Virus record (IMG/VR): IMGVR_UViG_3300042287_000568
Direction: 5' to 3' (one strand)
DNA from: an uncultured virus (IMG/VR IMGVR_UViG_3300042287_000568)
Lineage: Duplodnaviria; Heunggongvirae; Uroviricota; Caudoviricetes
Length of the DNA: 64,000 nt
Shown here: in pieces, positions 2,849 to 23,976 of the stretch
How the letters are laid out: every line of letters begins with the position of its first letter
Numbering within the stretch: position 1 is the first letter of the stretch
The notes under the pieces: model-generated
What the model was told of the DNA's origin: nothing
The model's database searches: none
Seen by the model: the letters and a program-made list of their open reading frames with translations, nothing else
Position numbers and translations under genes: made by a program

Positions 2849-3358
2849 TTACTGTGAGTTGCTTTCCGCCACCGTCAATGGAAGCAAGAACTCTCCGGAC
2901 TCCCACATGACACCAACGGTGCAGTATCCGATTACGTCTAGGTAATTGTCGGATACTGATTCGTTCATTGGGGGCTCACCTTTCGCGGTGAGGTTTTCTA
3001 ACCGTGCGATTTTGTCGTGCAGCCTGACCAGGATGCCATCACGTCCGAAGCGTGCGATGTTCTCTGGACCGTAGTCGTTTTGTTTACGTATCAGGGTCTC
3101 AACTAAATTTTCTTCGTTTATTTGAACTCCCGCCGCGCCGGCCGCACGTACTGCAGCGGCCCCGACATTAAAGAATGCTGCTTCGCCACTGAATTCTGGA
3201 CTAGTGCTCAGCATGGCCCAGACCTCGTCGTACATGCGGCGGATGTCCTGGAGGTTGATGCTGATGTCTACGTACTCCGCATTTAGGATTTGAAAAATGA
3301 TTTTTACAACGCGCGCGGCCGCAGCGTCCCAGGTATTAGATTCCATTGATTTCTCCAT
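2849..3358 (-). CDS. Nucleotide modification-associated domain protein (DUF1599/Nmad1-like)
   Basis: KQNDYG...GILVRLHDKIARLENL...ESVSDNYLDVIGY. Confidence 0.75.
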   Translation of the reverse strand: MEKSMESNTWDAAAARVVKIIFQILNAEYVDISINLQDIRRMYDEVWAMLSTSPEFSGEAAFFNVGAAAVRAAGAAGVQINEENLVETLIRKQNDYGPENIARFGRDGILVRLHDKIARLENLTAKGEPPMNESVSDNYLDVIGYCTVGVMWESGEFLLPLTVAESNSQ

Positions 3359-3749
3359 TTTTGATTTTGACGAGCGCTTCTTCTAGAAGACCGTTGAGAA
3401 TAAGTTCCCAGCCTTTTTCGTGTTTTGATTTATCAAAGTTATTAACAAGTGTTTCCATTAATATTTTTACAATTGAGCGCGGCCAGGCAGCGATAACAAC
3501 TCCATCATCAAACGTTTGGAATACTATCGGGTAATCGTCATTTTCAAACGCGCCATCTGGATAATGCATCCCGCGGACAATCATCCCTTCACCGGCCGCG
3601 ACAAATAGAAAGTTTTCGTGATTTTCTTTTTCCGACTCTTCAATATACTTTTCAAGTTCCGGAAATTTTGATGTCACTGAACGTACATCCTTGATGAACT
3701 TTTTCCATTTTTCGTTTTTCTTACTCACGTAGACCGGCCTTTCCGCCAC
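3336..3749 (-). CDS. Hypothetical protein
   Basis: 137-aa ORF overlapping the next gene of the operon. Confidence 0.6.
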   Translation of the reverse strand: MAERPVYVSKKNEKWKKFIKDVRSVTSKFPELEKYIEESEKENHENFLFVAAGEGMIVRGMHYPDGAFENDDYPIVFQTFDDGVVIAAWPRSIVKILMETLVNNFDKSKHEKGWELILNGLLEEALVKIKNGEINGI

Positions 3750-3833
3750 CGTAACAACTTGTAAAGAGTTGTCTTCATTAATTTATCAGAACCATTCGCG
3801 CATTGCAATTCTAAATGTTCTATATTTCTATAC

Positions 3834-4205
3834 ATGGACAACAACACTAGATTTAATCTTTATGTCAGAGCCCTTCGCCAATTCATTGAACGTGCCGGAC
3901 ACTCTCGGGTCCCGGCTGTTTACATTGAGATTGTTGATGGGGCAGAAGTAAACATCGGGGCTTGGGTGGGCTACATCCGGCAGCGCCGCAAAAAGAACCA
4001 GATGGCGGCAGACAAGATTGAAATTCTTGAAAATCTTGCCGGTTGGTCGTGGGGCCCCCTGAAGCCAGGGCCGGCGACGAATCATAATAGAAATTCGGAA
4101 ATTCTGCAGATGCGCAGCCAGGGAATGACCCTCCGCCAAATTGCAGACTCTTACGACCTGAGCCGTCAACGCGTTCATCAGATTGTGAAGAAGATTGATG
4201 CCTGA
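3834..4205 (+). CDS. Helicase-associated (HA) domain plus sigma-region-4-like HTH protein
   Basis: GHSRVP...IGAWV..IRQ (HA) and MTLRQIADSYDLSRQRVHQI (HTH). Confidence 0.75.
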   Translation: MDNNTRFNLYVRALRQFIERAGHSRVPAVYIEIVDGAEVNIGAWVGYIRQRRKKNQMAADKIEILENLAGWSWGPLKPGPATNHNRNSEILQMRSQGMTLRQIADSYDLSRQRVHQIVKKIDA

Positions 4206-4449
4206 CCAGTGGCCGGAGCCCGACTTCGTTAGCCCCGAAGAAGAGCGCCAGTATGCTTTAGATATTGTGAAGCAAGGAATTCGTTTCATAATTTTTAGTG
4301 TCCTAGCGACGACTGTCTTCCTGTGGGTTGTAACAAACATACTTGCTAACGCTAACGTTATTAGTTCAAGCATCTCTTGGGTGAATTGCGGAATACTTTC
4401 TTTGTTTTACGTAATACTCCGCGTTTGGAATTCAACTTTTTTTAAATAA
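4195..4449 (+). CDS. Small two-TM membrane protein
   Basis: Two hydrophobic segments. Confidence 0.55.
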   Translation: MMPDQWPEPDFVSPEEERQYALDIVKQGIRFIIFSVLATTVFLWVVTNILANANVISSSISWVNCGILSLFYVILRVWNSTFFK

Positions 4450-4648
4450 CGCGGTTACGTACGGGCCAATCACTGATTGGTTCACAGGCCCCAGTTGCGT
4501 ATTGGGTTATTGCTTCTTCAGTCCCACAACCAGAACAGATTTCTGTTTTATCGTCGGCTCTGGAGATTGCTCCAGGGTATTCGCCTGGTTGCAGGTTAGT
4601 AGGGATAAAACTGTCGTTGCAACGTGGGCAGATTCTGGGAACTTTCAT
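4442..4648 (-). CDS. Small zinc-ribbon protein
   Basis: CPRC...AISRADDKTEICSGCG. Confidence 0.6.
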   Translation of the reverse strand: MKVPRICPRCNDSFIPTNLQPGEYPGAISRADDKTEICSGCGTEEAITQYATGACEPISDWPVRNRVI

Positions 4649-4867
4649 TTTTTTCTCTTTTTCTTACGGCCGCAGCCGGCAAGTAGTATTGTACAGATTT
4701 AACGGAGGCTTTCCACCACCGTCAGTGCTAAAGACTAATAATATTCCGGTCAATGGCGCACTCTATGCAGCATGCAACTCGGCAACCGTGTTTGATTTCC
4801 CAGACTGGCTCGTCATCAACGAACTCGTCGCAGTAATGGCAGTAGCCCCGACGCGAGCCCCAGAACT

Positions 4868-5137
4868 CTACCATTGTCTTTCCCCGTGTTTGAGGAATGA
4901 GTAGCAGTCTTCGTGGTAGTTGCCGTAGTAAGACACTCCGTCTTTCTCGTAATCAACTCGGACTTCAGTGTCAAGGTAGATAGTTTGTTCGCACTCGTCA
5001 CATTCAAAGCCTGCACACTCAGCGCAAGCCCACCCGTCATCGGTTGGTAGACGGTTCACAAAGAGACCAAAGCCTGAGTTGAACGCTGTTGAGCGTCCAC
5101 AGTGCACACATTCGTCAGTTTCAATCTTGTGTTGCAT
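4868..5137 (-). CDS. Cys-rich zinc-finger hypothetical protein
   Basis: Several CxxC pairs; AAGGAG RBS before ATG 5137. Confidence 0.6.
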   Translation of the reverse strand: MQHKIETDECVHCGRSTAFNSGFGLFVNRLPTDDGWACAECAGFECDECEQTIYLDTEVRVDYEKDGVSYYGNYHEDCYSFLKHGERQW

Positions 5138-5941: not shown

Positions 5942-6035
5942 AATAACTCCTTAGTAGAACTTCATTTTACGGGTAGTAAGGGCTAGCCACAACCCCACAA
6001 CCAACAAAGGAGCAAGTGGTTGTGGGGCGTAGCGG

Positions 6036-7490
6036 TCAGTAAGGAAGTTTCCCACCTCGTGCTTCCCACGCATGCTTCAACATGTATGGGAAAGGTGCCT
6101 TCGGTACCGTCATTCCTTTTGAGAGCGCTCCGAGAAGAGCGATGGTGGCTTCGGCGTTTTCGGTCAGGTGAATCTTCTTCTCCAAACAGAACGCAGTGCA
6201 TTGGTTCGCAAGTAGTTCAGAGAATCCTTGGTGAGGACCACAGACTCCACCGTCAGTCATCCAAATGACTGGAGCAGTTGAGTGCTGGCGACGCTTCACT
6301 GCCCATTCAAGCGCAGGGAAGTCAACGCCGTTGCCTTGACCCATCTCGGGCATTTCGTCAACCATACGACCCTTGTCAGCAAGAATCCAAGCGTTCGGAT
6401 GACCATCACGAATATCGGAGTACGCAATGACGGTAGCCCCCGGACTTGCTTCAAGAATTCTGCGAACATCATCTTGAGATAGAGACATTGAACCCGATGC
6501 ATCAACGCACACGACTCCACCCATTCCTCGTCTCTTGTTGTCAAAGATTCGCTTCTGTGGGTCAGTCATGTATCGGTGGATACGGCGTGGTGAGCGACCA
6601 ACATTGGATGCTGTTTTCTTCTTTCCCAAATTACCTTTAGCAATAATAGGAAGTGGCAACTTCTCAATCATTAGTTCTCCCCAATAAGGAACACTGTTGT
6701 CCATTCTGTCGGGAGTAATTGTTTTTAGTTTTTCACGAAACTCAGTTTCTTTTACTTTTACACTTCCGATGTTTGAGTGTTCACGCTTGCTTTCTTTGTC
6801 ATCACCTTCGGTACTCATTGAAGAGTCGTCACTTGATTCTGATTCATCTTCCGACGGTGGTTCCATACCAGCGAGACGGTCAACCCATTCAGCAAGTTTC
6901 TCTGTGTAGATGAATCCAAATGGAGCGAGACCAGTAGAGGCATGCACTTCGGTGCTTGATAAGCGGTGACCAGCCTTGTTCATTTCTTTCACTGCTCGCT
7001 TAGAGATATCAGCAAGCGCAGTACCCCATAAGCGGTTATGTCGGCGTATGCCGTTCAGGAACAACTTGTTACTTGCGGTACCAGCAGTGGCGACAGCCAT
7101 GTGTACTGCACCCTTCCAGTCTTCGGTGCAAGCAAGGCGTTCTCCGTCTGCGGTCTCTCCACCGTCAGACAGTTGGTTCTTCACATCAAAGCCAGCCCTA
7201 TCGCACAGTAAGTTCACACGCAATTCTTCACACGCCATCATTGCTGGAAGAGTGGCAATCTTTCTGTTCTGCCACTTCTCCCAATCATTAGCAGGAGAAA
7301 CTTTTGCATGCATCATTTCGTGCGCTCGGATTACTCTTGCTTGTTCAGTGTCGTGTGCAGGTGCAAGCATCTTGCGTTCCACGATAGAAGTAGCAGGGAT
7401 GCCACGGCGAGGTTCGCAATCTTCAACTTGCCAAGCGCCATGCTCGGCGTCGTTACGCCCAAGCCATTCGGGTTCGGCAATGTGTCTCAT
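6036..7490 (-). CDS. HEXXH metallopeptidase-like plus VWA domain protein (MoxR partner)
   Basis: AHEMMH, acidic linker, VCVDASGSM MIDAS motif, WMTDG. Confidence 0.75.
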   Translation of the reverse strand: MRHIAEPEWLGRNDAEHGAWQVEDCEPRRGIPATSIVERKMLAPAHDTEQARVIRAHEMMHAKVSPANDWEKWQNRKIATLPAMMACEELRVNLLCDRAGFDVKNQLSDGGETADGERLACTEDWKGAVHMAVATAGTASNKLFLNGIRRHNRLWGTALADISKRAVKEMNKAGHRLSSTEVHASTGLAPFGFIYTEKLAEWVDRLAGMEPPSEDESESSDDSSMSTEGDDKESKREHSNIGSVKVKETEFREKLKTITPDRMDNSVPYWGELMIEKLPLPIIAKGNLGKKKTASNVGRSPRRIHRYMTDPQKRIFDNKRRGMGGVVCVDASGSMSLSQDDVRRILEASPGATVIAYSDIRDGHPNAWILADKGRMVDEMPEMGQGNGVDFPALEWAVKRRQHSTAPVIWMTDGGVCGPHQGFSELLANQCTAFCLEKKIHLTENAEATIALLGALSKGMTVPKAPFPYMLKHAWEARGGKLPY

Positions 7491-8209
7491 TAGTGAACCT
7501 TGTCAATCGCAATGGCGTCCAGTACAGAAGTTGCTCGGTCACCAAAGATAATCTTTGCAGACTTCTCGTCACCTAGTTGCTTACGCAGTTTGTCAAATGC
7601 GTAGAAAGTACGCAATGAGATTCGGCGCTTGCCAGCATCAGCCATACGGACTGCGTACTCACGCAACTCGTACGACAACTTCTCAAGCGCACTCGGGTGA
7701 GGGGCGTTGATTCGGATACGAACAGGGAATCGGTCAGCGAGCGCCATTGGCAACTCTTCCATATTCTCAATGTTCGTGGTCATGACTGCAGAGAACCCGT
7801 CTTTCGGACGATGGATACGACCAGTCTCGGGATGCTCCCAAGTTGCTGATTCAGGTGAGTCAAGCATCGCAAGCAGAAGTGCGAACACATCTCCCGACGC
7901 CTTGTCAATCTCATCCACGATGAGACGACCACCATTGAGTCCGTTGCCTTCCCAAGCCTTGAGACCAGCACCAGCGACCCATGAGAATCTGCCGTTACCG
8001 TCAGGCATGAATGCTCCAGTCACATCCATTGAAGTCATGTCTTCTGTGCAGACCAAACGGTGTGCGCCAGCGCCGACATTTCCAAATGTGAGACCAGCAA
8101 AGGTCTTGCCAGTTCCAGCAGGTCCAAACAGGATGACTCGGTCAATCCCTGAGTCCATGCAGTCTTTGAGTGTTTGCCAGCACTCGGGTAGTGTTATTTC
8201 TTTTTCCAT
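7490..8209 (-). CDS. MoxR/CbbQ-like AAA+ ATPase
   Basis: GPAGTGKT, LIVDEIDKA, ALADRF; AAGGAG RBS before ATG 8209. Confidence 0.85.
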   Translation of the reverse strand: MEKEITLPECWQTLKDCMDSGIDRVILFGPAGTGKTFAGLTFGNVGAGAHRLVCTEDMTSMDVTGAFMPDGNGRFSWVAGAGLKAWEGNGLNGGRLIVDEIDKASGDVFALLLAMLDSPESATWEHPETGRIHRPKDGFSAVMTTNIENMEELPMALADRFPVRIRINAPHPSALEKLSYELREYAVRMADAGKRRISLRTFYAFDKLRKQLGDEKSAKIIFGDRATSVLDAIAIDKVH

Positions 8210-8277
8210 TTTATTGCTCCTTTGCAATTGGTTATGACTCCATGTTACGGGTAGTAAGCCCTAATCACAACATCTCT

Positions 8278-8763
8278 TTACAGATTCTTTTCGGCTTTCT
8301 TATCAGCCTCAGCGTCACGCACTTCCCATAGACCCTTCTTGACTTTGCGGAAAGTCGGAGACTCCTGCAAGAACTTCAAGGTGGTGGGATAAGAGAAGCC
8401 TGATACTTCAACCAACTGCTCGGTAGTGAACTGTTCAAATAGGTGGTCTTTTGACCAAGTCAGTAGGGCATCGTACTTGTCGGCTCGGCGGGGCCTCGGG
8501 GTAAGTAGTTCCTCGGGGTCAACGACTTCGTCACAGTATTCAGCGACCACATCAGCGATTACCTCTGTCGGTACGGAGTAAGTAGATAGGTAGCGAGCAG
8601 GATTGCCCGACCCGTTCCAACCCATCAGCGCATAGAGCGCACGAGTATGAGTGGATATCTTGTGTATCTCCTCAAAGGGCACCTTGAACTTGTCGCCATG
8701 TCTTTCTATGGCGTCGTCCCATAGGGAACGATGGACGTCGTTTATCTGTTCTATGGTAATCAT
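8278..8763 (-). CDS. Hypothetical protein, possible C-terminal winged helix
   Basis: GAGGAG RBS; FTTEQLVEVSGFSYPT...KKGLWEV. Confidence 0.6.
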   Translation of the reverse strand: MITIEQINDVHRSLWDDAIERHGDKFKVPFEEIHKISTHTRALYALMGWNGSGNPARYLSTYSVPTEVIADVVAEYCDEVVDPEELLTPRPRRADKYDALLTWSKDHLFEQFTTEQLVEVSGFSYPTTLKFLQESPTFRKVKKGLWEVRDAEADKKAEKNL

Positions 8764-8930
8764 CTAAATAACTCCTCTTTGCATCCTATGCACACCCAAT
8801 GCCCTGGCTCAAAGTCGTAGGGCTTGATGAATGTGAACTCCTGACCATCATCATGAGGTACGCCACATTCGTCGCACTCAAGTTCTAAGTCAGATTCAGT
8901 AATTGTTTCTAGGTCTTTGTATTCCTTCAT
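8760..8930 (-). CDS. 56-aa zinc-ribbon protein (not in ORF track)
   Basis: MKEYKDLE...CDECG...CIGC; leaderless start after a motif promoter. Confidence 0.65.
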   Translation of the reverse strand: MKEYKDLETITESDLELECDECGVPHDDGQEFTFIKPYDFEPGHWVCIGCKEELFR

Positions 8931-9059
8931 GCCTCCATCTTATGGATAGTAAGGGGTACTTCCAACATTCTTAGAAAAATTTATAAGAAATTTGCGTCGT
9001 GACTGGGTGCCCCGGTGTTGTATTATTGTTTCACGAGATTTATTCAGAAGGAAAATATC

Positions 9060-9296
9060 ATGAGAAAACTTACTCCAGAAGAAGCATTGGCAAAAGTAGA
9101 AGCATTTGAGAAAGCATCCGGGGCTACCGTTGCAGCGCCAGTAAGGGCAGCAGATGTTGAGCCGAAGGGTATTGGTTCAGACTCCTTCGTAATGCCAGCC
9201 GCTAAAGTAGTTGAAGTTGCTGAGGTAGTTGAAGTCGCCGAAGTTGTTCTGGCCCCAGAGGCCGCTGTAAAAAGTAAGAAAAAAGAAGAAAATTAA
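9060..9296 (+). CDS. Low-complexity Val/Glu/Ala-rich protein
   Basis: GAAGGA RBS; VVEVAE repeats. Confidence 0.55.
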   Translation: MRKLTPEEALAKVEAFEKASGATVAAPVRAADVEPKGIGSDSFVMPAAKVVEVAEVVEVAEVVLAPEAAVKSKKKEEN

Positions 9297-9380
9297 AAAA
9301 GGCTAGGGGTAAGTCATTTACCCAAAAGTTTGATTTCTGAATAAACGCGCAGCGTGGTTCTTCCGCCACCGTCAGTGCTA

Positions 9381-9656
9381 CTAAAAGGGGTTGATGAAAT
9401 CCACTACTATTGCTGTTTCTGTTTGGGAACCCTCTGCTTGATTGTCTTCAATCCAAGTCTCGTGGTCCCGAGTAATCTCTTGCCAGCCTTTATTCCAGTG
9501 TCCGCCTTCGTTTAAAAAGTCGTAAAAATCTTCTGGTTTGAATTCTTTCCAGGTATCTGGAAGGTCTTCGTCTTTTATAAGGAAGTAGTCATACTTGTCG
9601 TATGCTGGTCCACCATTTGGGTAGACCACTTCAGTTCTGATGCGAATCTGATGCAT
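9381..9656 (-). CDS. Hypothetical protein
   Basis: ATG overlaps the stop of the upstream ORF. Confidence 0.55.
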   Translation of the reverse strand: MHQIRIRTEVVYPNGGPAYDKYDYFLIKDEDLPDTWKEFKPEDFYDFLNEGGHWNKGWQEITRDHETWIEDNQAEGSQTETAIVVDFINPF

Positions 9657-9835
9657 TAGATGACTTCCGTGACGTCCCATGGTCGGTCCCAGCCACTGTC
9701 ACCGTCTAGGTCTCGTGTCTTGAGTTGTGTATCAGTGAGACGGTCATAGGCTTCTAGTGCACCATCTTCGTCCTCCGCTTCAACCTCGTATTGGTGATTG
9801 ATGCTTTCGGTTACCTGAATAATGTATTTCTTCAT
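9656..9835 (-). CDS. 59-aa hypothetical protein (not in ORF track)
   Basis: MKKYIIQVTESINHQYEVEAEDEDGA...; leaderless start after a motif promoter. Confidence 0.65.
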   Translation of the reverse strand: MKKYIIQVTESINHQYEVEAEDEDGALEAYDRLTDTQLKTRDLDGDSGWDRPWDVTEVI

Positions 9836-9860
9836 GGCTTCACTCTATAGGTAGTAAGGG

Positions 9861-10118
9861 TTAAACACAACCTGCAGGGTCGTTATTGAGGACGATGTTT
9901 TTGCGCTCAACCCAGCGACGCCCAGTTCCGAGCACTGGAGTTACTTCCAAGTCAAGGTGACCGTATCGTCGGCGAGCCCCGAGAACCATCACATTGACAG
10001 TGAGACCCTCTTGCTCAATCGTTCCGTGACAGTTGAGATATGCGTTTAGGTCTAACTTGCCATCTGTGGTGCGGGCTACCGCTGTGTCGTTAGTTGAGGG
10101 TGTGTCTACAATGTTCAT
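9861..10118 (-). CDS. Hypothetical protein (SH3-like beta protein)
   Basis: AAGGA RBS; 85 aa. Confidence 0.55.
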   Translation of the reverse strand: MNIVDTPSTNDTAVARTTDGKLDLNAYLNCHGTIEQEGLTVNVMVLGARRRYGHLDLEVTPVLGTGRRWVERKNIVLNNDPAGCV

Positions 10119-10705: not shown

Positions 10706-10706
10706 T

Positions 10707-11955: not shown

Positions 11956-12199
11956 GGCTTTCCGCCACCGTTAGACGATTAGTAACACAGAAAAGACGAA
12001 CCCATGCCGCAGTCCCGAATGTTGAAATACTTGTTTATGATGCTCGTGTTCGCTTACCCCGTGCTGTTCGTGCACCCGGGGCTTGCGCTCATCTGCGCTG
12101 GCGTGAGCATTTGGGCTTGGTCGGTTGCAAAAGATGAGTTTCATAAAGAAATGTAAACCACAGGTTGTTGTTACCCCTTACTACCCGTAGAGTGAAGGC

Positions 12200-15180: not shown

Positions 15181-15462
15181 TGGGTTGGTACATTTACTGT
15201 TTCATTTTGGGTTTTGCTATTGCTAAGGCAGACTGGTCGGGAATGTTCTCAGATGCCCCGATGGATTGCACTCACGCATGGCAGAACAACCATTGTTATG
15301 TGTGTGGAGATGAACGATGAGACTCTTCCGCCACCGTAAGACGATTAGAAAAGTGATAATCCCCCCGAACGGCACTAAATCGTTCACGAACAAGGGCTCA
15401 TACTCGGGCTCGGGTCTCGGGGCTGTGCGTGTGAGCGCAGGCTTGCCGAACGCAGGAATGTT

Positions 15463-16332: not shown

Positions 16333-16581
16333 ATGGATATAAAAGAAATAAGACCCGAACTACTGGCGTACTACAAAACCTATGTAGGTAAGCGAGTACA
16401 ACTAATCAGTTGCTCTGACCCGTACACGAAACTTGTTCGTGGCGATGAGGGCATTGTTACTTCCGTAGATTCGTTCGGAACTGTTCATGTGAACTGGGAC
16501 AACGGCTCTAGTCTCGGACTTGTGTACCGAGAAGATAACTTCTCTTTGGTTGAGCCTCTTCCGCCACCGTCTGACGATTAG
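16333..16581 (+). CDS. DUF4314-like protein
   Basis: GKRVQL...DPY..L..G.EG.V..VD..GTVHVNWDNGSSLGL....D. Confidence 0.8.
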   Translation: MDIKEIRPELLAYYKTYVGKRVQLISCSDPYTKLVRGDEGIVTSVDSFGTVHVNWDNGSSLGLVYREDNFSLVEPLPPPSDD

Positions 16582-16672: not shown

Positions 16673-16750
16673 GTTTATTTGTGCATGAGGTTGTCTTTAC
16701 CCTTTACTACCCATAAAGTGAAGTATCAAACAACACAGAAAGAGGAAAGT

Positions 16751-16936
16751 ATGAGTGACTGCACACAGACACAACCTAATTGCGAAGAACCACCCGAATA
16801 CGAGTTCTCAAAAAACGAGACCGTAGATACGGATTGCGGCGATTGCGGCGAGACATTTAGTTTTACGCCTGACGGTGGCTGGCTCATATGGTACGCCTAC
16901 GAAGTTGAGTGCCCAAATTGCTACGGGGAGTGGTAA
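16751..16936 (+). CDS. Small zinc-ribbon protein
   Basis: GAGG RBS; CGDCG...CPNC. Confidence 0.6.
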   Translation: MSDCTQTQPNCEEPPEYEFSKNETVDTDCGDCGETFSFTPDGGWLIWYAYEVECPNCYGEW

Positions 16937-17166
16937 TGATTACGGAAACTGAAATAACGGTGGCACTTCCGAAAGGAGACCCTGAATGGGTGGACAAGTT
17001 CCTCATCGCTTGGGGCGCACTTGCCGAGTCGTTAGACTCGTTCTACGAACTCGCCGAGCAGACGCCACTTGGCTTCATGGGACTCGTGAACTCGGGGCTC
17101 AAAATCACGGAGAAAGCACTCATTGACATTGAGAAGGCAGTTGTGAAGCACAACATGGTGAACTGA
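16936..17166 (+). CDS. Hypothetical protein
   Basis: GGAG RBS, TAATG coupling. Confidence 0.6.
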   Translation: MITETEITVALPKGDPEWVDKFLIAWGALAESLDSFYELAEQTPLGFMGLVNSGLKITEKALIDIEKAVVKHNMVN

Positions 17167-17440
17167 TGGGACTGATTACGAACTACATTGCGTACAGAGT
17201 TGGCAAGCGAGTTGCGACACGCAGTCGCCCTTCGGGAGCCCAGCATTACGCCGTTCAGGGCGACCCTGAGTGTTTGAACTACGAGTCGTTCTGCAAGAAC
17301 TACGGAAGTTGCGATGACATGGAATGTGAGTACGAGCAATGAACCCGGGGCACCCACGTGCGACGCCCCTAATGCGAGAACTTCTGAAATAATCCGCAAT
17401 AAAAGTTGTGATTACCCCTTACTACCCATATCATGGAGTT

Positions 17441-17674
17441 ATGAAAGAAAAATACACAGACACTTTTCAGGGCTTACTTGACATGGAGTACTACTCCATC
17501 GGCGTAACTGGCGCTGAGGCGCTATGCAATATGCTTGGCGACTTCAACGATGGTAGCCTCACCGAGTTTCTTGCCGAGCAGGAAGTCGCTGAAGCCGAGT
17601 TCCTGATGACCGTGAACCGTCTCGCTGTGAAGTGGGCTAGCGAGAACGTACTGAACGTGATGGTGAAAGGGTGA
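17441..17674 (+). CDS. Hypothetical protein
   Basis: Leaderless ATG at TTG+35. Confidence 0.65.
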   Translation: MKEKYTDTFQGLLDMEYYSIGVTGAEALCNMLGDFNDGSLTEFLAEQEVAEAEFLMTVNRLAVKWASENVLNVMVKG

Positions 17675-18132
17675 CGCTCATCTGCACTAACTGCGGTGTG
17701 GGGGCCCCGGCTACTCAGCAACAAGGCAACTTTATTGACTACGGCTGGTCGCTAAACAACTGCTCTCTAGGTCACTACGGTGGCTTCTCTGACAACTTCC
17801 CATGTGATGAGAGAAATCTGTCTACTGACAAACAGTACGCACACTTATGCCATGACTGCTGCGTGAAGATGCTTGAAGCACTTCCGGGGCTGGCTAAGTA
17901 CCTGTTTCCCAACGGCGGTGGTCACCCGAACGTAAATGGCTTTCCAAACAGCGGTAGGAACACAAGTGTTGACGGCACTGGCATAGACATTCCCTCGTGC
18001 TGTGAGTACGCATGGACTTGGAGTGGAGAGTGCGAGGGTTGCAATGACCCAATCACTTACTTCGGAGCCCCGAATGGCGGATGGCGCAAACGAGAGTGCC
18101 TTAGATGCAAGGTGAAACAAATTCCAGAATGA
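17671..18132 (+). CDS. Cys-rich zinc-binding hypothetical protein
   Basis: Multiple CxxC; GTGA coupling. Confidence 0.6.
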   Translation: MTLICTNCGVGAPATQQQGNFIDYGWSLNNCSLGHYGGFSDNFPCDERNLSTDKQYAHLCHDCCVKMLEALPGLAKYLFPNGGGHPNVNGFPNSGRNTSVDGTGIDIPSCCEYAWTWSGECEGCNDPITYFGAPNGGWRKRECLRCKVKQIPE

Positions 18133-18320
18133 GGTTGTTATTACCCGTTACTACCCGTAAGATAGAAGTATGAAGTTGTGAAACTGGCGGACACGCGAAG
18201 ACACAACCTCTACCTACAACAAGAGAGTAAACAATGGAATATTTAGGCTTTCTTGCAACAGTATGTTTTTTATTCGTACTGGTTGCTTACACAATCAAGC
18301 ACTATTAGACTCGGGGCTAC

Positions 18321-18512
18321 ATGGCTCAGTACAAATGCGACTTTTGCGACCACGAAGTAGACCCTAGGTCAGCAAGCGTTTATCACTTAATTACAGGGTG
18401 GGCTAAAGGCGCAACACAGAATGTGAAGTATGTGGACACAAACCACCACAAGTACGCACATGAGTTCTGCATGCCCCGCAATGCCGGTGACGACCAACCA
18501 TCTTTGTTCTGA
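18321..18512 (+). CDS. Small zinc-finger protein
   Basis: CDFC...HEFC. Confidence 0.55.
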   Translation: MAQYKCDFCDHEVDPRSASVYHLITGWAKGATQNVKYVDTNHHKYAHEFCMPRNAGDDQPSLF

Positions 18513-18564
18513 TAAATCTCAACGAGAGGTTGTTGTTTTGACTTCTTATCGGTATTATGGACTT

Positions 18565-18876
18565 ATGAACAACATTACTATGACAGGAACAAACCTCATG
18601 GTTGATGGAAAGGTTGTTGCATCTATCAGCAACTTCCCATCTCTCCGTGATGCTTTGTTTGACAAATTGACTCGTACCGAAGCCGTGTATCTAGCAGTAG
18701 CCCTAATGGGTGAGGCTCGCACAGTTGCCGTAGCAGAACTGCTTGACATGGACAAGGCTAACGCAACCAAGCGTCTGCTGTCTTTGGAAGAAGAAGGCAG
18801 AGTGGAAGTCATTGACGACTGCAACACACTCGGTAAGCCGGGGCGTCCTTCACGAGTCTGGGCAATCGCCGACTAA
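18565..18876 (+). CDS. Winged-helix (MarR/TrmB-like) DNA-binding protein
   Basis: VAELLDMDKANATKRLLSLEEEGRV...GRPSRVW; leaderless start. Confidence 0.7.
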   Translation: MNNITMTGTNLMVDGKVVASISNFPSLRDALFDKLTRTEAVYLAVALMGEARTVAVAELLDMDKANATKRLLSLEEEGRVEVIDDCNTLGKPGRPSRVWAIAD

Positions 18877-19002
18877 ATGCTTTCCGCCACCGTTAAAGGA
18901 TTAGAAACACTTAATTCTTGTGACGCAAGGAAACAAAAACCACTAAAACCGTCGGAATAATCCGATGTTGCTTTTACCCTTTACTACCGATAGACTGGAA
19001 TT

Positions 19003-19170
19003 ATGAAAGATGAACTAACAGGAAACCCCTATGTCTGCGAACACGCCAGATATGTCCGCCTCTACGACCTCACCGGGGCTCAAGCCGCAGGCGTACTGCT
19101 GTGCGAAGACGAGTCTGAGCGTGACCAAGCCTGCTTCCGCTTCATTGACATCAACGCCCGTGCTCGGTAG
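19003..19170 (+). CDS. 55-aa hypothetical protein (not in ORF track)
   Basis: Leaderless ATG at TTG+35. Confidence 0.55.
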   Translation: MKDELTGNPYVCEHARYVRLYDLTGAQAAGVLLCEDESERDQACFRFIDINARAR

Positions 19171-19214
19171 CCCAGCATTTGTGTTTGCGACAATGTAGGG
19201 ATAATGTTTAGACT

Positions 19215-19565
19215 ATGAAGTACAGACACGACAGACCAATGAAAAACATGAGCAACAGCGAGTTTATTACTTTTGTGCTTGAACTACCAGACGAGAAGGT
19301 GGATGCTGGGCTCATGGACGAGTGTTTTCATCGCTTGGTTGAGTTGGAGGGTCAGCGTTTTGATTTTCATCAGGCATTACATTTTGTTATAGATTGCGTA
19401 GAGGATAAGTCCCGACTGGACGGACTTGACCTAGTTGAGTTGTGTGTCATTGCAGGGTCAGACGGAAAGCCTCGTGATAACAGCGAAAGTAACCCAGACC
19501 TTGAACTTGAAGAATGTGAGCCGTTCCTTCGTTCTTGTGGGGCTTACGAAGATGACGAAGATTAG
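19215..19565 (+). CDS. Acidic hypothetical protein
   Basis: 116-aa ORF. Confidence 0.6.
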   Translation: MKYRHDRPMKNMSNSEFITFVLELPDEKVDAGLMDECFHRLVELEGQRFDFHQALHFVIDCVEDKSRLDGLDLVELCVIAGSDGKPRDNSESNPDLELEECEPFLRSCGAYEDDED

Positions 19566-19601
19566 GTTGTTTTTTTGACCTCTTATGGATAGATTGGTGT
19601 T

Positions 19602-19805
19602 ATGAGTAATCCTCCACTTCCATCCCGTCTGTCTTGCCTGCGCTTTGCGTTGGCTTCCGTCCTTGTGCGCTACGCCTTCCGTGTGTGCCCTCTCATCTTC
19701 GCTCCTCGCTTCATTGAGGAGACGGATGAAATAAGTCAGTACAAAGGCGAACTGTGGGCTGACAACGACTACATCAGTAACGACGACTGGAGTTTCCACA
19801 ACTGA
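19602..19805 (+). CDS. Hypothetical protein
   Basis: Leaderless ATG at TTG+35. Confidence 0.55.
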   Translation: MSNPPLPSRLSCLRFALASVLVRYAFRVCPLIFAPRFIEETDEISQYKGELWADNDYISNDDWSFHN

Positions 19806-19820
19806 GAGTTTTCTCAAACG

Positions 19821-19853
19821 AAAGCCATCTGCCTTCGGGTGGGTGGCTTTTTT
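19821..19853. terminator. Intrinsic terminator between convergent genes
   Basis: AAAGCCATCTGCC-TTCG-GGTGGGTGGCTTT followed by T run. Confidence 0.75.
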
Positions 19854-20118
19854 AGTTTTCCTCGGGGCTGAGAAGACGCATCTGTTTTTTCACTTCTGTG
19901 TAACAGGAGTTGAACGCATCTCCGAGTGACTCAAACTTCTTTGATACAGCCCACACATCGTCTTCACCGCGAGTCCACGCCAGAACGTCCCAGAGCCCCG
20001 AGACGCGTCGCATCTCAAAGTCCATGTCATGCAAGTCAAAGAACTTCGTGTATTGAGGAATATCGTTCCCTGCGTATGAGTTGTCTTCTTCGGGGCTACT
20101 CCCCCACGTGCTTGGCAT
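19852..20118 (-). CDS. Hypothetical protein
   Basis: TATTCT-N6-ATG leaderless start at 20118. Confidence 0.6.
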   Translation of the reverse strand: MPSTWGSSPEEDNSYAGNDIPQYTKFFDLHDMDFEMRRVSGLWDVLAWTRGEDDVWAVSKKFESLGDAFNSCYTEVKKQMRLLSPEEN

Positions 20119-20211
20119 AAACGCAGAATACCACAAACTTTATTTTTGCTGCAAGGTTGTTTTTACCTTTTATTACCGCTATGATGAAGTTATGAATGGG
20201 GGGAGGTGAAA

Positions 20212-20334
20212 ATGATTACAACCACGACTTGCTGGTTTTGCGGTGTGCTATGCCCAATCCAAGGCTTTGTGGAACTGCCCAACGGCGGTACCGAGCCTGC
20301 AGGGACTTGCCCTGACTGCGAAGCAGAACAATAA
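20212..20334 (+). CDS. 40-aa zinc-ribbon protein (not in ORF track)
   Basis: GGAGGTG RBS; CWFC...CPDC. Confidence 0.6.
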   Translation: MITTTTCWFCGVLCPIQGFVELPNGGTEPAGTCPDCEAEQ

Positions 20335-20610
20335 CCACACAGCCCCCGAAGCCCTCCGACAGGACAGGCTAGGGGGCTTTTCGCTGTCCCCTTTTATGCG
20401 CCTTCGTTGTTCTGCCCGCAGCCCCGGAGCCAGCACCAGAACGTTCTGTAACCAGATGCGAGAGTCGGGGCTCGCCGGCCGCCGGGCCGTAATTTAGAAA
20501 GTAGCGTCACGCAATTTTCTAGTTGCTTCACGAAACCTAGTCAGTTTCATTATCTAACCCAGTCAGTTTCGTAACGCTAGTAGGTTGCGTAATGCTTGTT
20601 AGGCATGCCT

Positions 20611-20630
20611 AATGTTTCACGTGAAACATT
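20611..20630. promoter_or_regulatory. parS: Chromosomal-type parS site
   Basis: AATGTTTCACGTGAAACATT, a perfect 20-bp palindrome containing the parS consensus TGTTTCACGTGAAACA; intergenic. Confidence 0.85.
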
Positions 20631-20688
20631 CTGAAAAAAAGTTTGGGGTGAGGTTGTTTCTACCCTTTACTATCTATATATTGGAGTT

Positions 20689-20901
20689 ATGGATAAGCAA
20701 CAAGTAGCGGAAATCGCAAGACTGGCAGAAGAACTAAGAGGAGCCCTCAAGGCCCTGACTGGTCCGAGTGGAAAGATGACATCATGGTGGTTCGGAAAAC
20801 CAGAGGACTGGCCCGAGGGTCTGCCGTGGACCGACGAGCAAATCGCAGCAGCAAGTAACGCTCTCGGGTCGCTGACCCTAGACGAAGAATACGGGGACTG
20901 A
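20689..20901 (+). CDS. Hypothetical protein
   Basis: Leaderless start. Confidence 0.65.
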   Translation: MDKQQVAEIARLAEELRGALKALTGPSGKMTSWWFGKPEDWPEGLPWTDEQIAAASNALGSLTLDEEYGD

Positions 20902-20938
20902 GGTTGTTATTACCTCTTACTACCGATAGGTTGGAGTT

Positions 20939-21235
20939 ATGAAGAAAATAGCCAAAGACATCAAGAAACTTGCCGAGGCTCTGGGCATCACGACAGACGA
21001 ACTGTTGAAGGAGATGGAAGTCGGTTCGCCGACGAAACCCTTCACGGTCTCAATCTCGTTCGGTCGCCTGAGCCAGATGGAGAGTTTCGCCGAGGAATAC
21101 CTAGCCAAGACGGGGCTTGCCCTGTACCACGCCGACGCACTTGACTACGAGTACAAGGGTCGTGCGCCAGGAAATACATTCGTGGTTCGTAACCCGAACG
21201 ACACGCACAAGCCTGAGGACATGAGAGTTTTCTGA
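20939..21235 (+). CDS. Hypothetical protein
   Basis: Leaderless start. Confidence 0.65.
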   Translation: MKKIAKDIKKLAEALGITTDELLKEMEVGSPTKPFTVSISFGRLSQMESFAEEYLAKTGLALYHADALDYEYKGRAPGNTFVVRNPNDTHKPEDMRVF

Positions 21236-21356
21236 CTCTCAGTCTTCTGGTGGGGCCCCGAGAATTGCTTTCCGCCACCGTTAAAGGATTAGAAACCCTG
21301 ACACACCCCCTGGGGTGCGGGATTTTTTTTGATTTTTTCGTCGGTTCAGAACGGTA

Positions 21357-21377
21357 TGTGGATAAACCTGTGGATAA
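21357..21377 (-). promoter_or_regulatory. Two perfect DnaA boxes
   Basis: TGTGGATAA at 21357-21365 and 21369-21377, upstream of promoter 21394. Confidence 0.7.
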
Positions 21378-21517
21378 CTTTTTTGGTTGCAGGTTGGAAC
21401 TACCCCTTACTACCGATAGAGTGAAGGTATGAATGAATACACAGTCCCCGAGATGCCCGACCATTGCCATTGCAGTAGCAACGGCGAGTGCAATTACTGT
21501 CTCAAACTGATAGAGGA

Positions 21518-21811
21518 ATGATGGAGAGAATTAGTCCCGCTCAGCGTAGAGCGCAACGACAAGCCGAGTACAAGCGTCTCTCACGAAACAGTAAGCGCAG
21601 ACGGGCGTACTACCTCAAATTCGTAGCCGACAGACCAGCCCACTGTAACGCATGCGGGGCCACGAAGACCGCAAAAGAGATGGTTGATTACGCACGACGA
21701 GAAGTAAGCGTCAAGAACAAGTGTCGTCCGTGCTTTGATAAAGAACTAGAAGAGGAATACGGGTACGAAGACGAGTACGAAGACGACCGAATTTGGTGGA
21801 AGACGGGATGA
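21518..21811 (+). CDS. Basic zinc-finger hypothetical protein
   Basis: CNACG...CRPC; follows a 30-aa leaderless Cys-rich ORF at 21429-21521. Confidence 0.6.
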   Translation: MMERISPAQRRAQRQAEYKRLSRNSKRRRAYYLKFVADRPAHCNACGATKTAKEMVDYARREVSVKNKCRPCFDKELEEEYGYEDEYEDDRIWWKTG

Positions 21812-22204
21812 TGTGTTATTGTGACACGATGAGACGACCAGCCGAAACCGAAGAAGAAATAGCAATCTCTAAAAAGAAGTTGCTAGATGCTTGGGAAAAG
21901 GCGAAGATGAATTCTCCATTCTTTACTCCAAAAGTTCCCGACGAGAAGCCCCGAGAAGACTAAGTTTTACAAAAGACCTCACACACCCCCATTCATTGAG
22001 GCGCAAGTGCCCCCACCCTGTTTTTGTTCAAACTTTTAGGTGGGGGCATTTGACGTATTATGGGTACATGACAAATGAACCAGACGACGGGGCTCCGAAA
22101 GAGCCGGAAGAGCCGAAGGAAGAACCGCAACCACGCCCTCGCTTTCTTCAGAGAAAACGACGCACGGGTTGTCGTACCTGCTTCTAACCTGTAACCTGCA
22201 AGGC

Positions 22205-22534
22205 ATGGTAGGAAAAGACGCAAAAAACTTTGACCCGACTGATGTCATGATGAGAACCAAGAGACCCCCGACACCCGCTCAGGTGCAAGAGCATCTTGAA
22301 GCGATGGGCGAGACGACCCTTCTGATGGACGGCTTTGGGGACGCACTCATTGGTTTCTCACAACGCATAAACGAACCGTTCCTTGCTGTGTACTCATGGG
22401 AGAAGATGATGGAAGTCTGTATGGTTCGTGACGGTATGGACGAAGAAGAAGCAGAAGAGTACATCAGTTACAACTGCACCGGGGCTTGGGTGGGCGAGCA
22501 AACTCCAATTATTGTTATGCCCGTGTTGTACTGA
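22205..22534 (+). CDS. Conserved phage hypothetical protein
   Basis: DGFGDALIG...AVYS...EEAEEYISYN..GAWVGEQTP. Confidence 0.7.
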   Translation: MVGKDAKNFDPTDVMMRTKRPPTPAQVQEHLEAMGETTLLMDGFGDALIGFSQRINEPFLAVYSWEKMMEVCMVRDGMDEEEAEEYISYNCTGAWVGEQTPIIVMPVLY

Positions 22535-23054
22535 TGAGCAAAGAAGTGTCTCCCGAAGGCAATGTCAATGTCACCATCGCCAATGTCCTCAAATGGTTTG
22601 AGGAGTCAGAGAGTTGTTTGTTTCACAACCATGCTGAGCGAATCCCGATAACGAAGACACAGAGCCCCGACTTGGTTCAGTCAATAATAGACAGTCACTT
22701 CTGCTAGTTCCGCCGACTAGATAAATCTTTCTCACCATGTTGGTATTAGTGTTTACTACCTGTAAAGTGTAACTATGGAAGTACAAGAAACACGTAAACC
22801 AAAAGCATGGCGTAACGGCAGATACATTTACTGCATGACTCATAGTCAGACACAGTGCTACGACATTGAACTCCTCTATGGAGACGACCCTGCGATAGAC
22901 GGTGGACGTAAGTGCGATTGGTGCAAGGGGAGACTCAAGTGAAGGACTGGACATGGGAAGATATGCAGGCGTATGACGACTTCATGGAGTCATGGGCTAA
23001 CGCTTACCTGTGCGAAACAGCGAACGAAGACGGGGCCGCCGAATGCGCATAAGT

Positions 23055-23429
23055 ATGCGTTCATTAAGTATTGGATTCATTTCTTTAGTCGCATTGACGG
23101 GAGTTGTGAAACTGTCGCATCTTTCCACTGAGTTTTTTCTACCTACGCATTGGGCTTACAATGACGCATACAACCCTAATGCTGAACCGGTGTATGGTGA
23201 TGAGTGTGGATACTCTTACGCAGAAGGAGAACAGTGCGATTCCGTGTTGCTCAACAACACCGACTACGAGCAGTATATTCCATACCATACATACATCGGC
23301 AGTGATGAATATGTTTACTGGGACGAGGAAACGCCTCTCGGGCCATTGGTAACGTTCCTTGTGATATATGGAGTCGGCACTTACTTCGCAGTAAAGAAAC
23401 TATACGACGAAGATGGGGTTAGCGAATGA
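23055..23429 (+). CDS. Membrane protein
   Basis: N- and C-terminal hydrophobic helices. Confidence 0.55.
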   Translation: MRSLSIGFISLVALTGVVKLSHLSTEFFLPTHWAYNDAYNPNAEPVYGDECGYSYAEGEQCDSVLLNNTDYEQYIPYHTYIGSDEYVYWDEETPLGPLVTFLVIYGVGTYFAVKKLYDEDGVSE

Positions 23430-23677
23430 CGTTTGACGACCACTACGAAGACGGTACCTACGAAGAGTTCGTGGATAGAGTGTACGCCTCTTGGGAGCAT
23501 CCAGCGAATCAGAAGCGTCTAGGTCAGGTGTTCTTCAACAAACTCCACAAGGAGCGCCCCGCAATAGCGGCTCACATTCAAGGCACCATGTTTGACCCAT
23601 TCCACCAAGACTACATCCACATCAAGGTGGCTGAAGTGGTGAAGACGTTGTGGTACGAAGAGAACAACAAGGACTGA
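23426..23677 (+). CDS. Hypothetical protein
   Basis: RLGQVFFN.L....P......GT.FDPF pattern. Confidence 0.65.
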   Translation: MTFDDHYEDGTYEEFVDRVYASWEHPANQKRLGQVFFNKLHKERPAIAAHIQGTMFDPFHQDYIHIKVAEVVKTLWYEENNKD

Positions 23678-23715
23678 AGGTTGCAGTCGCCTTCTACTAT
23701 CCGTATAATGGAAGT

Positions 23716-23820
23716 AGCCAGCCAACTGGCGGTGGTTAATCGGATTCGGTAAGACCACACAATTAGTTTCGCTAACGGGAAATGGGAAATAAACCTCAGC
23801 CTTCGGGTTGGGGTTTTTTC
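23716..23820 (+). ncRNA. Candidate small RNA of about 105 nt
   Basis: Motif promoter with TATAAT but no ATG at +1; three hairpins and a UUCG terminator with T run. Confidence 0.55.
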
Positions 23821-23976
23821 TTGTTTTATCGCACGTTCCCGCTGCAGCCCCGTCGTTGTCCTCTTGCGTCTAGACGGTTACTCCGAATTCCTTTCCGCCA
23901 CCGTTAGTAGATTAGGGATGATATTTTCTGGCTGCCGTAATCCGGGACTTCGGCTGATAAGAATCTACAAAAAGGC

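Follow-up and report, generated by a model that had tools for sequence, protein, structure and literature searches.

Occurrence and placement of the motif

The early region of a large lake-water phage carries a short DNA word, the 12-mer TTCCGCCACCGT, which keeps to one strand among genes that are transcribed in both directions, and the question raised by this locus is what would read such a word and why its orientation is fixed. In the window, that is, the whole stretch of 64,000 nt that was analysed, nine exact copies were identified, all on the + strand, starting at 2864, 3741, 9361, 11960, 15326, 16559, 18882, 21270 and 23893. None is expected by chance, as 100 shuffles of the window gave 0 matches. 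The initial annotation had counted ten copies on the + strand; the strand holds for all ten, whereas the copy at 4711 is not exact but a variant with one mismatch, TTCCACCACCGT. The cluster spans 2864–23904 among early genes, + strand throughout, and no copy with zero or one mismatch was found past 23904 on either strand of the 24–64 kb part of the window, in agreement with the earlier statement that copies stop before 24 kb. Three hits with two mismatches near or past the cluster end, one on the − strand (23624) and two on the + strand (52044 and 62304), do not exceed chance, about 3.2 such hits being expected per window. The same limit applies to the degenerate copy that had been proposed at 2455 (TTCCACCACCGA, 2455..2466, + strand), which is indeed present but carries two mismatches and may be merely coding sequence (TIGGGKD) of an initiator-like gene; its membership is uncertain.

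Of the ten copies, seven fall between genes, and the other three, at the start or end of a gene, are those already described as touching coding ends. These are gCTTTCCGCCACCGT at 2862..2875 (+), within the last codons of the leftward gene 2849–3358; the copy at 16557..16581 (+), inside the last codons of the + gene 16333–16581; and the copy at 3739..3752 (+), located in the divergent gap between the leftward gene 3336–3749, whose start it abuts, and a rightward gene at 3834–4205, whose ATG is 81 nt away. The variant copy at 4709..4722 (+) is followed by the extension CAGTGCTA, and its − strand holds a promoter-like pair (TGGAAA, 16 nt, TACAAT) for gene 4442–4648. The same extension follows the copy at 9359..9372 (+), which lies between the convergent genes 9060–9296 (+) and 9381–9680 (−), 8 nt from the stop of the latter. 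All six right-arm copies extend instead to N5-GATTAG, both extensions being as first reported. Besides the one at 16557, they are found 4 nt past the stop of the + gene 11530–11955 (11958..11982), ahead of TGTGGATAA boxes and a promoter repeat (15324..15348), 5 nt past the stop of the + gene 18430–18876 (18880..18904), 34 nt past the stop of the + gene 20939–21235 with a hairpin and T-run next (21268..21292) and, for the copy that closes the cluster, 133 nt upstream of gene 24038–24301 (23891..23915), all on the + strand. The left arm had been taken as uniformly leftward, which is not the case: 3834–4205, 4195–4449 (second in a two-gene rightward unit, coding for 84 aa without a family match) and 9060–9296 are real + strand genes, thus the copies at 3741, 4711 and 9361 adjoin rightward genes.

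Conservation and strand polarity in relatives

The motif is kept as CTTTCCRCCACCGT in many IMG/VR relatives, with roughly 2 bits at each position of the 14-mer. Some of the motif-bearing relatives match the window at 65–73% DNA identity in conserved genes only; one of these (G003) has 11 copies inside 23 kb of its 136-kb genome. In another relative (G002), the sites are found at orthologous places. Over five records, 53 of 54 matches with at most one mismatch are on one strand, and the strand stays constant even where neighbouring genes are inverted. All 8 copies of G004 are on the + strand amid leftward genes, while, of 261 non-redundant sites, 136 are flanked by leftward genes on both sides and 53 by rightward genes on both sides, and homologous genes are found in both orientations relative to the sites. 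The initial suggestions that the strand ignores transcription direction and that the constraint acts on the DNA are hence borne out by the relatives, and the genome-wide map and conservation check that had been called for gave one strand in the window and a motif retained in relatives. The exception is L016, with both site orientations, one site after a helicase gene and one at the contig end, and a third motif copy within the primase gene.

The surroundings of the sites are heterogeneous: past rightward stops, upstream of leftward promoters, in the place of a −35 plus spacer, or serving as a Shine-Dalgarno-like stretch. Among the 89 sites with a + gene as left neighbour, 17 have a co-oriented stop 4–6 nt before them, a weak −35-like element (TTGAG, TTGCG or TTGTCA) is often seen 6 bp past the 14-mer, and in G004 three sites precede leftward promoters of the form TTGGTA-18-TAnnnT by 8 nt. 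Position 5 of the motif is mostly G in rightward contexts and mostly A in leftward ones, and the downstream half-site is weak, at about 1 bit per position where the context is rightward and lower still where it is leftward. A rightward sigma-70 promoter was considered and found no support, the TTG...TAnnnT pair following the motif on the + strand in 1 of 109 copies; likewise, no TAnnnT peak was detected in 265 non-redundant copies on the + strand. On the − strand a promoter fits in a subset only, as TTGACG-17-TAnnnT in 18 of 265 copies and in the G004-type register in 8 of 265.

A candidate binder encoded within the cluster

Gene 3834–4205 (+), which was absent from the initial annotation, tracks the motif, and its product of 123 aa is predicted to contain two DNA-binding modules. 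In 80 viral loci holding a homologue, collected via protein homology and oriented by the gene, 372 motif copies are on the strand of the gene and 0 on the opposite one. The loci reached by motif scan that hold the gene (n = 24) gave 110 copies against 0. At least two exact copies are present in 71 of the 80 loci; three more, from one phage, carry 6–7 copies of the variant ATCCACCACCGT, all on the gene's strand. The six loci without the motif hold the most distant homologues (42–44% identity), which differ in the HA helix (GAWVGYxRQR to GNWVSYMRTR). In about 40 of the 80 loci a copy lies 52–106 nt upstream of the ATG, exactly 81 nt in the family of the window, G002 and G003, and a second copy directly behind either the gene or the two-gene unit leaves the gene bracketed. 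It should be kept in mind that this link consists of co-occurrence in one phage lineage and of gene position, so synteny alone could yield it.

The protein matches the HA domain (PF03457, E 9e-12), Sigma70_r4 (2.7e-6), HTH_23 and HTH_7, and its predicted layout is an HA domain connected through a conserved proline-rich linker to a sigma-70-region-4/resolvase-like HTH, with the helix LSRQRVHQIVK invariant among homologues. Its AF2 model (pLDDT 86) predicts two helical modules and the linker. The C-terminal module is similar in fold to the DNA-binding domain of Tn3 resolvase (Z 7.3 over 43 aligned residues, rmsd 1.6); further matches are Tc3 transposase, domain 4 of sigma and, weakly, the Cluster A2 repressor 7tz1 (Z 5.4), all Z values being middling (<8). 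Foldseek with the model returned nothing at E <= 0.001, a PDB sequence search gave no gp71-type chain, and no recombinase catalytic domain was found by family search.

Proposed role of the sites

The conservation of the sites, their polarity, their co-occurrence with the gene and the domain predictions come from the sequence data themselves, while binding by this protein, an effect on transcription and the reason for the fixed strand are inferred. We tentatively propose, as a reading that may well be right without yet commanding full belief, that the sites are dispersed asymmetric operators, or stoperator-like sites, of the 3834–4205 regulator at early operon boundaries. The 12-mer would be the core of an asymmetric 14-bp site for a protein, the 123-aa protein being its most likely binder, with a predicted target carrying CTTTCCGCCACCGT; as the protein has two predicted DNA-binding modules and a linker, a single molecule could read an asymmetric site of such length. 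Since the sites occur only at operon boundaries of the early region, they most likely control early transcription. The bound candidate protein may block or insulate at operon ends and, in some relatives, may act immediately before the −35 element of leftward promoters, while its own gene is probably autoregulated via the bracketing sites. On the other hand, a classical regulator leaves unexplained an orientation that never flips along with the target genes, and the two orientations in L016, the heterogeneous contexts, the weak downstream half-site and the middling fold matches (Z below 8) all weigh against such a role.

This design resembles that of the Cluster A stoperators. The L5/TipsytheTRex repressor is described as a monomer with two DNA-binding domains that reads more than 20 asymmetric 13-mers, whose orientation follows transcription and whose reversal abolishes repression (PMC9283540). 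Both systems have many asymmetric sites of 13–14 bp in short intergenic spaces of an actinobacteriophage, and a small two-module protein, here the candidate binder, possibly binding as a monomer; moreover, the reverse complement of the window site starts with GGTGGC, as does the L5 consensus quoted in the initial annotation. Unlike stoperators, however, the present sites have an orientation tied to the genome and the regulator gene, not to neighbouring genes, and they are limited to the early region, whereas stoperators extend genome-wide over early and late operons. The candidate binder family (HA plus sigma-4-like HTH) is also unrelated to L5 gp71, and the phage appears to be a lytic myovirus of large size, with a tail sheath present; no integrase was seen among the 49 largest of the 164 called ORFs of G003.

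All sites point as the regulator gene does, whatever their neighbours do, and the bound protein could thus be one-directional in its action or in what it tolerates; for example, RNA polymerase might be stopped from one side only, or replication forks might pass one way only. Precedents are found in Tus-Ter, RTP and CTCF sites, which are asymmetric, act according to orientation and stop a translocating machine from one side only, their orientation being set by the chromosome and not by genes. Like these polar barriers, the present sites are asymmetric and oriented by the chromosome rather than by genes, but the protein is unrelated and the sites are clustered in the early gene region. By analogy, the co-oriented sites, once bound, could be one-way gates for RNA polymerase or the replisome with a genome-set orientation, a possibility that we consider doubtful, in which an early-expressed HA-HTH protein would impose a single direction through the divergent early region.

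To our knowledge, dispersed asymmetric operators with a monomeric two-domain reader are so far confined to one phage group, the Cluster A mycobacteriophages. The same general design apparently arises here from an unrelated protein family, in widespread large freshwater actinobacterial phages, with the contrast that orientation is genome-locked (372 versus 0 copies over 80 loci). If confirmed, the system would offer a second independent model for the directional action of an asymmetrically bound protein on polymerases and, with a 14-bp site and a 123-aa protein, a compact portable pair for polar-roadblock tests. It also indicates that motif-protein co-distribution can serve to decode the early regions of uncultured phages.

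Alternative explanations

The uniform strand regardless of gene direction could also be that of a polar DNA signal for a machine of fixed direction, such as a programmed single-strand nick site, a replication signal (iteron-like, priming or permissive fork barrier) or a DNA-entry signal, where the HA-HTH protein might at most be a specificity subunit. The N-terminal domain of that protein belongs to a family named “helicase associated”, and the cluster begins on the upstream side of a replication-initiator-like gene, beside an AT-rich non-coding stretch (2507–2848), with no copies to the left of the cluster start in G002–G005. The nicks of T5- and phiKMV-like phages fall on one strand at a bipartite consensus, in phiKMV with a fixed gap, and the window motif is likewise bipartite with a fixed gap and on one strand. 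Nevertheless, we regard this explanation as unlikely: the nick sequences are unrelated to the window motif, and known nick sites as well as Chi/KOPS-type words are spread genome-wide, whereas the present copies are limited to the early region. Their kb-scale spacing is unlike that of iterons, nothing in the sequence data indicates a nick or an origin, GC skew in the window follows transcription only, and L016 has both orientations. The Chi-like signal raised in the initial annotation finds no support on the same ground, the 14-bp word occupying only some 22 kb of early genes rather than covering the whole genome with an orientation toward its ends. In the 401 Actinomycetota genomes searched (9 of them unpublished), a partial check for a host word, the full 12-mer occurs 0–8 times per genome, about as often as a reversed-pattern control. 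A contig scan with the 12-mer gave at least 120 loci, of which the 80 listed, from unrelated phyla, had a single match each.

It is less probable still that the sites are bound by another factor, candidates being a phage WhiB-like protein working together with the sigma A of the host, a different early protein or a regulator from the host. WhiB-like genes are present in the window at 467–868 and 31275–31637, the former flanking the cluster in all relatives examined, and the association of protein and motif is one of phylogenetic co-distribution only. Yet we know of no WhiB-type protein that reads 14-bp words, the 12-mer shows no enrichment in the 401 Actinomycetota genomes searched, and the bracketing of 3834–4205 together with the invariant HTH helix favours the 3834–4205 protein.

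Action at the RNA level is improbable. As the motif is on one DNA strand, rightward RNA would carry CUUUCCRCCACCGU and leftward RNA its exact complement, the Shine-Dalgarno-like ACGGUGGYGGAAAG, and pairing of the two early mRNAs might exert antisense control of translation or stability. The rightward word lies 4–6 nt past stops and ahead of hairpins, like a 3′UTR seed, its leftward complement is often 4–16 nt before starts (3741, L053, L012), and G or A at position 5 would permit G:C, G:U and A:U pairs. However, the systematic G/A difference weakens pairing instead of keeping it, most leftward copies are away from start codons, many sites are upstream of promoters and maybe untranscribed, and the G004 copies are nearly all of one RNA polarity. 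No common RNA structure was detected, 1 of 6 folds reaching z −3.3 and the others not being significant, and there was no Rfam match at E <= 1 in 1–26000. The only tRNAs of the window are at 43232 and 45249.

Recombination joints for early cassette shuffling, as boundary or site-specific direct repeats, had also been suggested and are the least credible of all. In their favour, every copy is a direct repeat at a gene boundary, the HTH is similar to the DNA-binding domains of resolvases and transposases, and G002 has a different gene to the right of site 9361, the break falling 17 nt past the site. Against them, no recombinase catalytic domain was found in the protein, homologous genes occur in either orientation to the sites and, in the one genome pair compared (window and G002), only 2 of 32 homology block ends come within 30 nt of a site, where about 1.2 would be expected, and 8 of 10 sites lie well inside homology blocks. 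Repeated regulatory sequences between small early genes are also known from the PeSL (promoter-early stem-loop) cassettes of T4-type phages, a likeness shared by the early region of this large phage; a PeSL-like role, though, fits the 40-nt leaderless promoter repeat of the window and not the 12-mer, as 12 of the 32 block ends, against 2 for the sites, fall on promoter repeats.

Distribution and conservation of the motif

We found the motif in the early region of the window to be real, conserved and strand-locked. Exact TTCCGCCACCGT, the 12-mer core of an asymmetric 14-bp word, occurs in 9 copies in the 64-kb window, at 2864, 3741, 9361, 11960, 15326, 16559, 18882, 21270 and 23893, all on the + strand, and did not match in any dinucleotide-preserving shuffle of the window. 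One variant copy on the + strand at 4711, TTCCACCACCGT, has one mismatch to the 12-mer and represents a frequent variant of the word in relatives; a degenerate + strand copy with two mismatches, TTCCACCACCGA, lies at 2455 and encodes TIGGGKD in frame. Mismatch-tolerant searching of the window added three two-mismatch matches, which is the chance level, and no copy with 0-1 mismatch past 23904. The strand restriction reported in the initial annotation is therefore borne out by 9 exact copies and 1 one-mismatch copy, all on the + strand and none past 23904, and so are the flanks that it described, as N5-GATTAG follows the six copies from 11960 on and CAGTGCTA follows those at 4711 and 9361. Most window copies are preceded by CT.

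Scanning viral contigs for CTTTCCGCCACCGT returned at least 142 loci, many with several copies on a single strand. In the related viral records, matches with up to 1 mismatch numbered 0 forward and 10 reverse in G002, 1 and 13 in G003, 8 and 0 in G004, 12 and 0 in G005, and 10 and 0 in G006. G002 is a close, collinear relative in which all ten window site positions are occupied. G003, which shares 65-73% identity with the window in conserved genes only, carries 11 single-strand copies in the syntenic region from the WhiB gene to the helicase. The persistence of copies in G002 and in the divergent G003 indicates strong selection on the word together with conserved polarity; the doubt initially raised, that the motif might not be conserved in relatives, is answered by sites kept in G002, G003 and others. 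An exception was found in the relative represented by loci L016 (copies at 3507, 10001 and 14940) and L047 (3434 and 9716), where one site lies 6 nt past the helicase stop in the same orientation as the helicase gene, an opposite-strand copy within the primase gene encodes NGGGKTKK and may be mere coding sequence, and another opposite-strand bipartite site lies at a contig end. The early cluster thus keeps a single polarity, although this does not hold strictly across the whole genome of every relative. Read in frame, the reverse complement of the 12-mer specifies GGGK, both in this primase gene and at window 2455.

Position of the sites relative to genes

Nine of the ten window sites lie at operon 3′ ends, whichever the direction, and the tenth, at 3741, precedes gene 3834-4205 in the divergent gap. 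That this + strand gene is real is shown by its six-frame protein matches, which total 648 bits vs 250 for the opposite-strand shadow ORF; a codon model and the codon phase of mismatches between window and G002 agree. The longest local ORF, 3828-4373 (-) of 181 aa, is only the shadow of this gene; naive longest-ORF calling assigns the wrong strand here and therefore hides the regulator gene. Genes 4195-4449 and 9060-9296 are likewise real + strand genes within the supposedly leftward arm, so that sites 3741, 4711 and 9361 adjoin rightward genes; copies 2864 and 4711 still lie between leftward genes. In G004 the entire early region is leftward, with the homologues of window right-arm genes 12738-13151, 13709-14140, 14806-15177 and 16324-16578 on the - strand, and despite these inverted genes 8/8 copies stay on the + strand. 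Among 261 non-redundant sites from relatives, a left-arm-centred sample whose proportions are biased, 136 are flanked by two leftward genes, 53 by two rightward genes, 34 by convergent gene ends and 32 by divergent gene starts, and 6 are unclassed. The claim that the motif ignores transcription direction therefore stands on the G004 copies and these contexts, although the left arm on which it partly relied is not all leftward. Inside the otherwise rightward arm, we also observed a leftward gene at 19852-20136 (-; 94 aa, codon score 17.5), beside which, at 19820-19851, stands a terminator-like hairpin (14 pairs, then a T-run) stronger than any other in the region.

The logo from non-redundant copies reads gCTTTCCRCCACCGT at about 2 bits per position. 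Next to rightward genes, position 5 is mostly G and the logo goes on as.A...gTTGAG.AAa, and in 17/89 cases the preceding gene stops 4-6 nt before the site; in leftward contexts position 5 is mostly A, with a weaker continuation CAa...Ttga. After each right-arm site of the window comes a variable stretch of 60-130 nt, often with a hairpin, and then the promoter repeat of the next gene block. DnaA-box-like TGTGGATAA boxes, the reverse complement of DnaA-box-like TTATCCACA, follow four of the six right-arm sites. The exact early copies (15463, 15475, 16664, 21357, 21369 and 23977, all +) each fall between a 12-mer site and the promoter repeat that follows it, later exact copies are found at 41261 (-) and 41306 (+), and some copies build TCCACA-N3/4-TGTGGA palindromes. 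On the same side of the site, where the window has TGTGGATAA, G004 carries GCGAAC-N4-GTTCGC palindromes.

The candidate regulator

In the 123-aa protein of gene 3834-4205, an HA (“helicase associated”) domain at the N-terminus (E 9e-12) is combined with a C-terminal HTH matching Sigma70_r4 (2.7e-6), HTH_23 and the resolvase HTH_7, and the 194 homologous clusters of this protein carry the source annotations “Mor family transcriptional regulator” or NarL/FixJ. The AF2 model (pLDDT 86) has two helical modules joined by a linker, WGPLKPGPAT, which is invariant. All fold matches of the C-terminal module are middling: the DNA-binding domain of Tn3 resolvase (Z 7.3, rmsd 1.6, 43 aligned), those of Tc3 transposase and sigma domain 4, and a Cluster A2 mycobacteriophage repressor (Z 5.4). 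Foldseek against the PDB gave nothing at E <= 0.001, and a PDB sequence search gave weak HTH matches only.

The gene and the motif occur together with a fixed relative orientation. Already among the matches listed in the first motif scan, 24 gene-bearing loci held 110 copies on the gene's strand and 0 on the opposite one. Searching viral contigs with the protein gave 80 loci, each of which was turned to put the gene on the + strand; in these, exact TTCCRCCACCGT was found 372 times on the gene's strand and 0 times on the opposite strand, and 71/80 loci had at least 2 motif copies. Three loci belonging to one phage carry ATCCACCACCGT instead, in 6-7 copies, all +. The six motif-less loci encode the most distant homologues (42-44% identity), in which the HTH helix LSRQRVHQIVK is kept and the HA helix differs; no 8-10-mer repeat that could serve as a substitute motif was found in these six loci, and CCGCCACC, tried as such, was rejected, its matches being glycine codons. 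In about half of the 80 loci one site lies 52-106 nt upstream of the regulator gene, a distance that is exactly 81 nt in G002, G003 and the window's own family, and another site lies just past the gene or the two-gene unit that it forms with 4195-4449.

Putative role of the sites and alternative explanations

The simplest account, judged from sequence, is that the 14-mer would be the binding site of the candidate 3834-4205 protein. The 14-mers would then act as dispersed asymmetric operators across the early region, bound by this protein, and the motif most likely represents a putative stoperator-type design with an unrelated two-domain regulator. Among known systems, the Cluster A mycobacteriophage repressor comes closest: as described in PMC9283540, it binds more than twenty asymmetric 13-mers as a monomer with two DNA-binding domains, blocks initiation and elongation, and fails at a reversed site. 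Compared with that description, the window phage has a protein of a different family and sites restricted to early genes, and the most striking difference is that its site orientation is independent of transcription. If the action is polar as in L5, uniform orientation would stop only polymerases of one absolute direction. Blocking of leftward polymerases, whether antisense or read-through, appears slightly more attractive than blocking of rightward ones, since sites lie a few bases after rightward stops and ahead of rightward hairpin terminators (21270), and also just upstream of leftward promoters.

Alternatively, polarity may be a constraint of another kind, with, for example, tight complexes held in the orientation that a replication fork can pass. 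The site cluster does start at an initiator-like gene and an AT-rich non-coding stretch; in 2380-2960 the only origin features were this AT-rich stretch and small hairpins, and the GC skew of G003 tracks transcription only. The non-coding stretch itself (2507-2848) adjoins the replication-initiator-like gene 2063-2506, shows window/G002 mismatches without codon periodicity, and contains hairpins and an AT-rich core at about 2550-2625; it may serve as an origin or have a regulatory function.

The motif is not itself the early promoter, and a promoter role is conceivable for part of the copies only. On the - strand, 18/265 copies stand in a TTGACG-17-TAnnnT register in which the motif serves as -35 plus spacer, and 8/265 follow the G004 register, with the motif 8 nt upstream of TTGGTA-18-TAnnnT, so putative - strand promoters are formed by subsets of copies only. 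Downstream of the 12-mer on the + strand, a TTG...TAnnnT pair was found in only 1/109 copies and no TAnnnT peak appeared across 265 non-redundant copies; the TTGAG half-site as a rightward -35 was rejected, this -10 element being absent. The early genes have a separate promoter-like repeat of about 40 nt, AGGTTGTnnTTACCCyTTACTACCsrTAGAATGAAGTTATG, with 21 copies on the + strand (11491-24049) and 6 on the - strand (5959-11474), which follows transcription and is laid out as -35 TTGTnn, 17 nt, -10 TAGAAT, 6 nt and ATG. Since each copy ends at the ATG, most small early genes would be expressed from leaderless mRNAs.

The initial annotation had also proposed a Chi-like word, which is so far not supported by enrichment in the genomes covered: in 401 Actinomycetota genomes (nine of them unpublished and used for counts only) the 12-mer occurs 0-8 times per genome, about the same as a reversed control, with 2+6 copies in the searched genome G365, and a genome-contig scan gave at least 120 loci, of which the 80 listed are all single matches in unrelated phyla. 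Nor did the sites behave as joints for cassette shuffling in the one genome pair compared, window and G002, where 2/32 homology block ends are no more than 30 nt from a site, against about 1.2 expected, and 8/10 sites lie well inside blocks. It is on the promoter repeats that 12/32 block ends fall (about 3.1 expected), and in this they resemble the PeSL cassettes of T4-type phages. Programmed nicks and injection signals, likewise proposed there, are conceivable alternatives. In the contigs of four runs, which carry no read ends, the breaks at 18879-18907 and 21267-21295 fall on a near-identical repeat of 37 nt and stem from the assembler. One loose end at 16571 and joints with a short side (<= 34 nt) were left aside. 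A known structured RNA is rejected, as neither Rfam nor tRNA searches matched the sites and no fold is shared by the six right-arm copies when folded together with what follows them. The papers listed as containing the exact 12-mer strings look unrelated to phages by their titles and abstract starts, and the strings in them are assumed to be primers.

Genome setting

The window is part of a large actinobacteriophage-like genome. It is annotated with a replication-initiator-like gene, a helicase-loader-like gene, helicase, primase, SSB, ribonucleotide reductase, major head protein and two WhiB-like transcription factor genes (467-868 and 31275-31637, both +), which point to an actinobacterial host; in every relative examined, gene 467-868 is found immediately to the left of the site cluster. 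The stretch was found in 24 lake-water metagenome runs, stored as contigs, and no DNA match was obtained in a phage GenBank collection, either to 11000-19000 in near mode or to 24335-27752 in distant mode. G001, the nearest record, is a fragment of 39 kb that has a single motif copy close to its end. G003 (136 kb, 91% complete) encodes tail sheath, portal and terminase, and its 49 largest ORFs, of 164 called, include no integrase. No physical terminus can be inferred from G002 and G004, since both sequences end inside one and the same large gene.

Some further features of the window were observed. A giant ORF of 2176 aa (34469-40999, -) has PHROG matches covering only its last ~130 residues, and tRNA genes for Arg (TCT) and Ile (TAT) lie at 43232-43305 (+) and 45249-45328 (-). 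A large protein without PHROG match (53036-55411, -) adjoins the major head protein; in its G003 counterpart (locus L145, 13923-16553), residues 414-536 match the sigma-factor family phrog_351 (E 1.2e-10).
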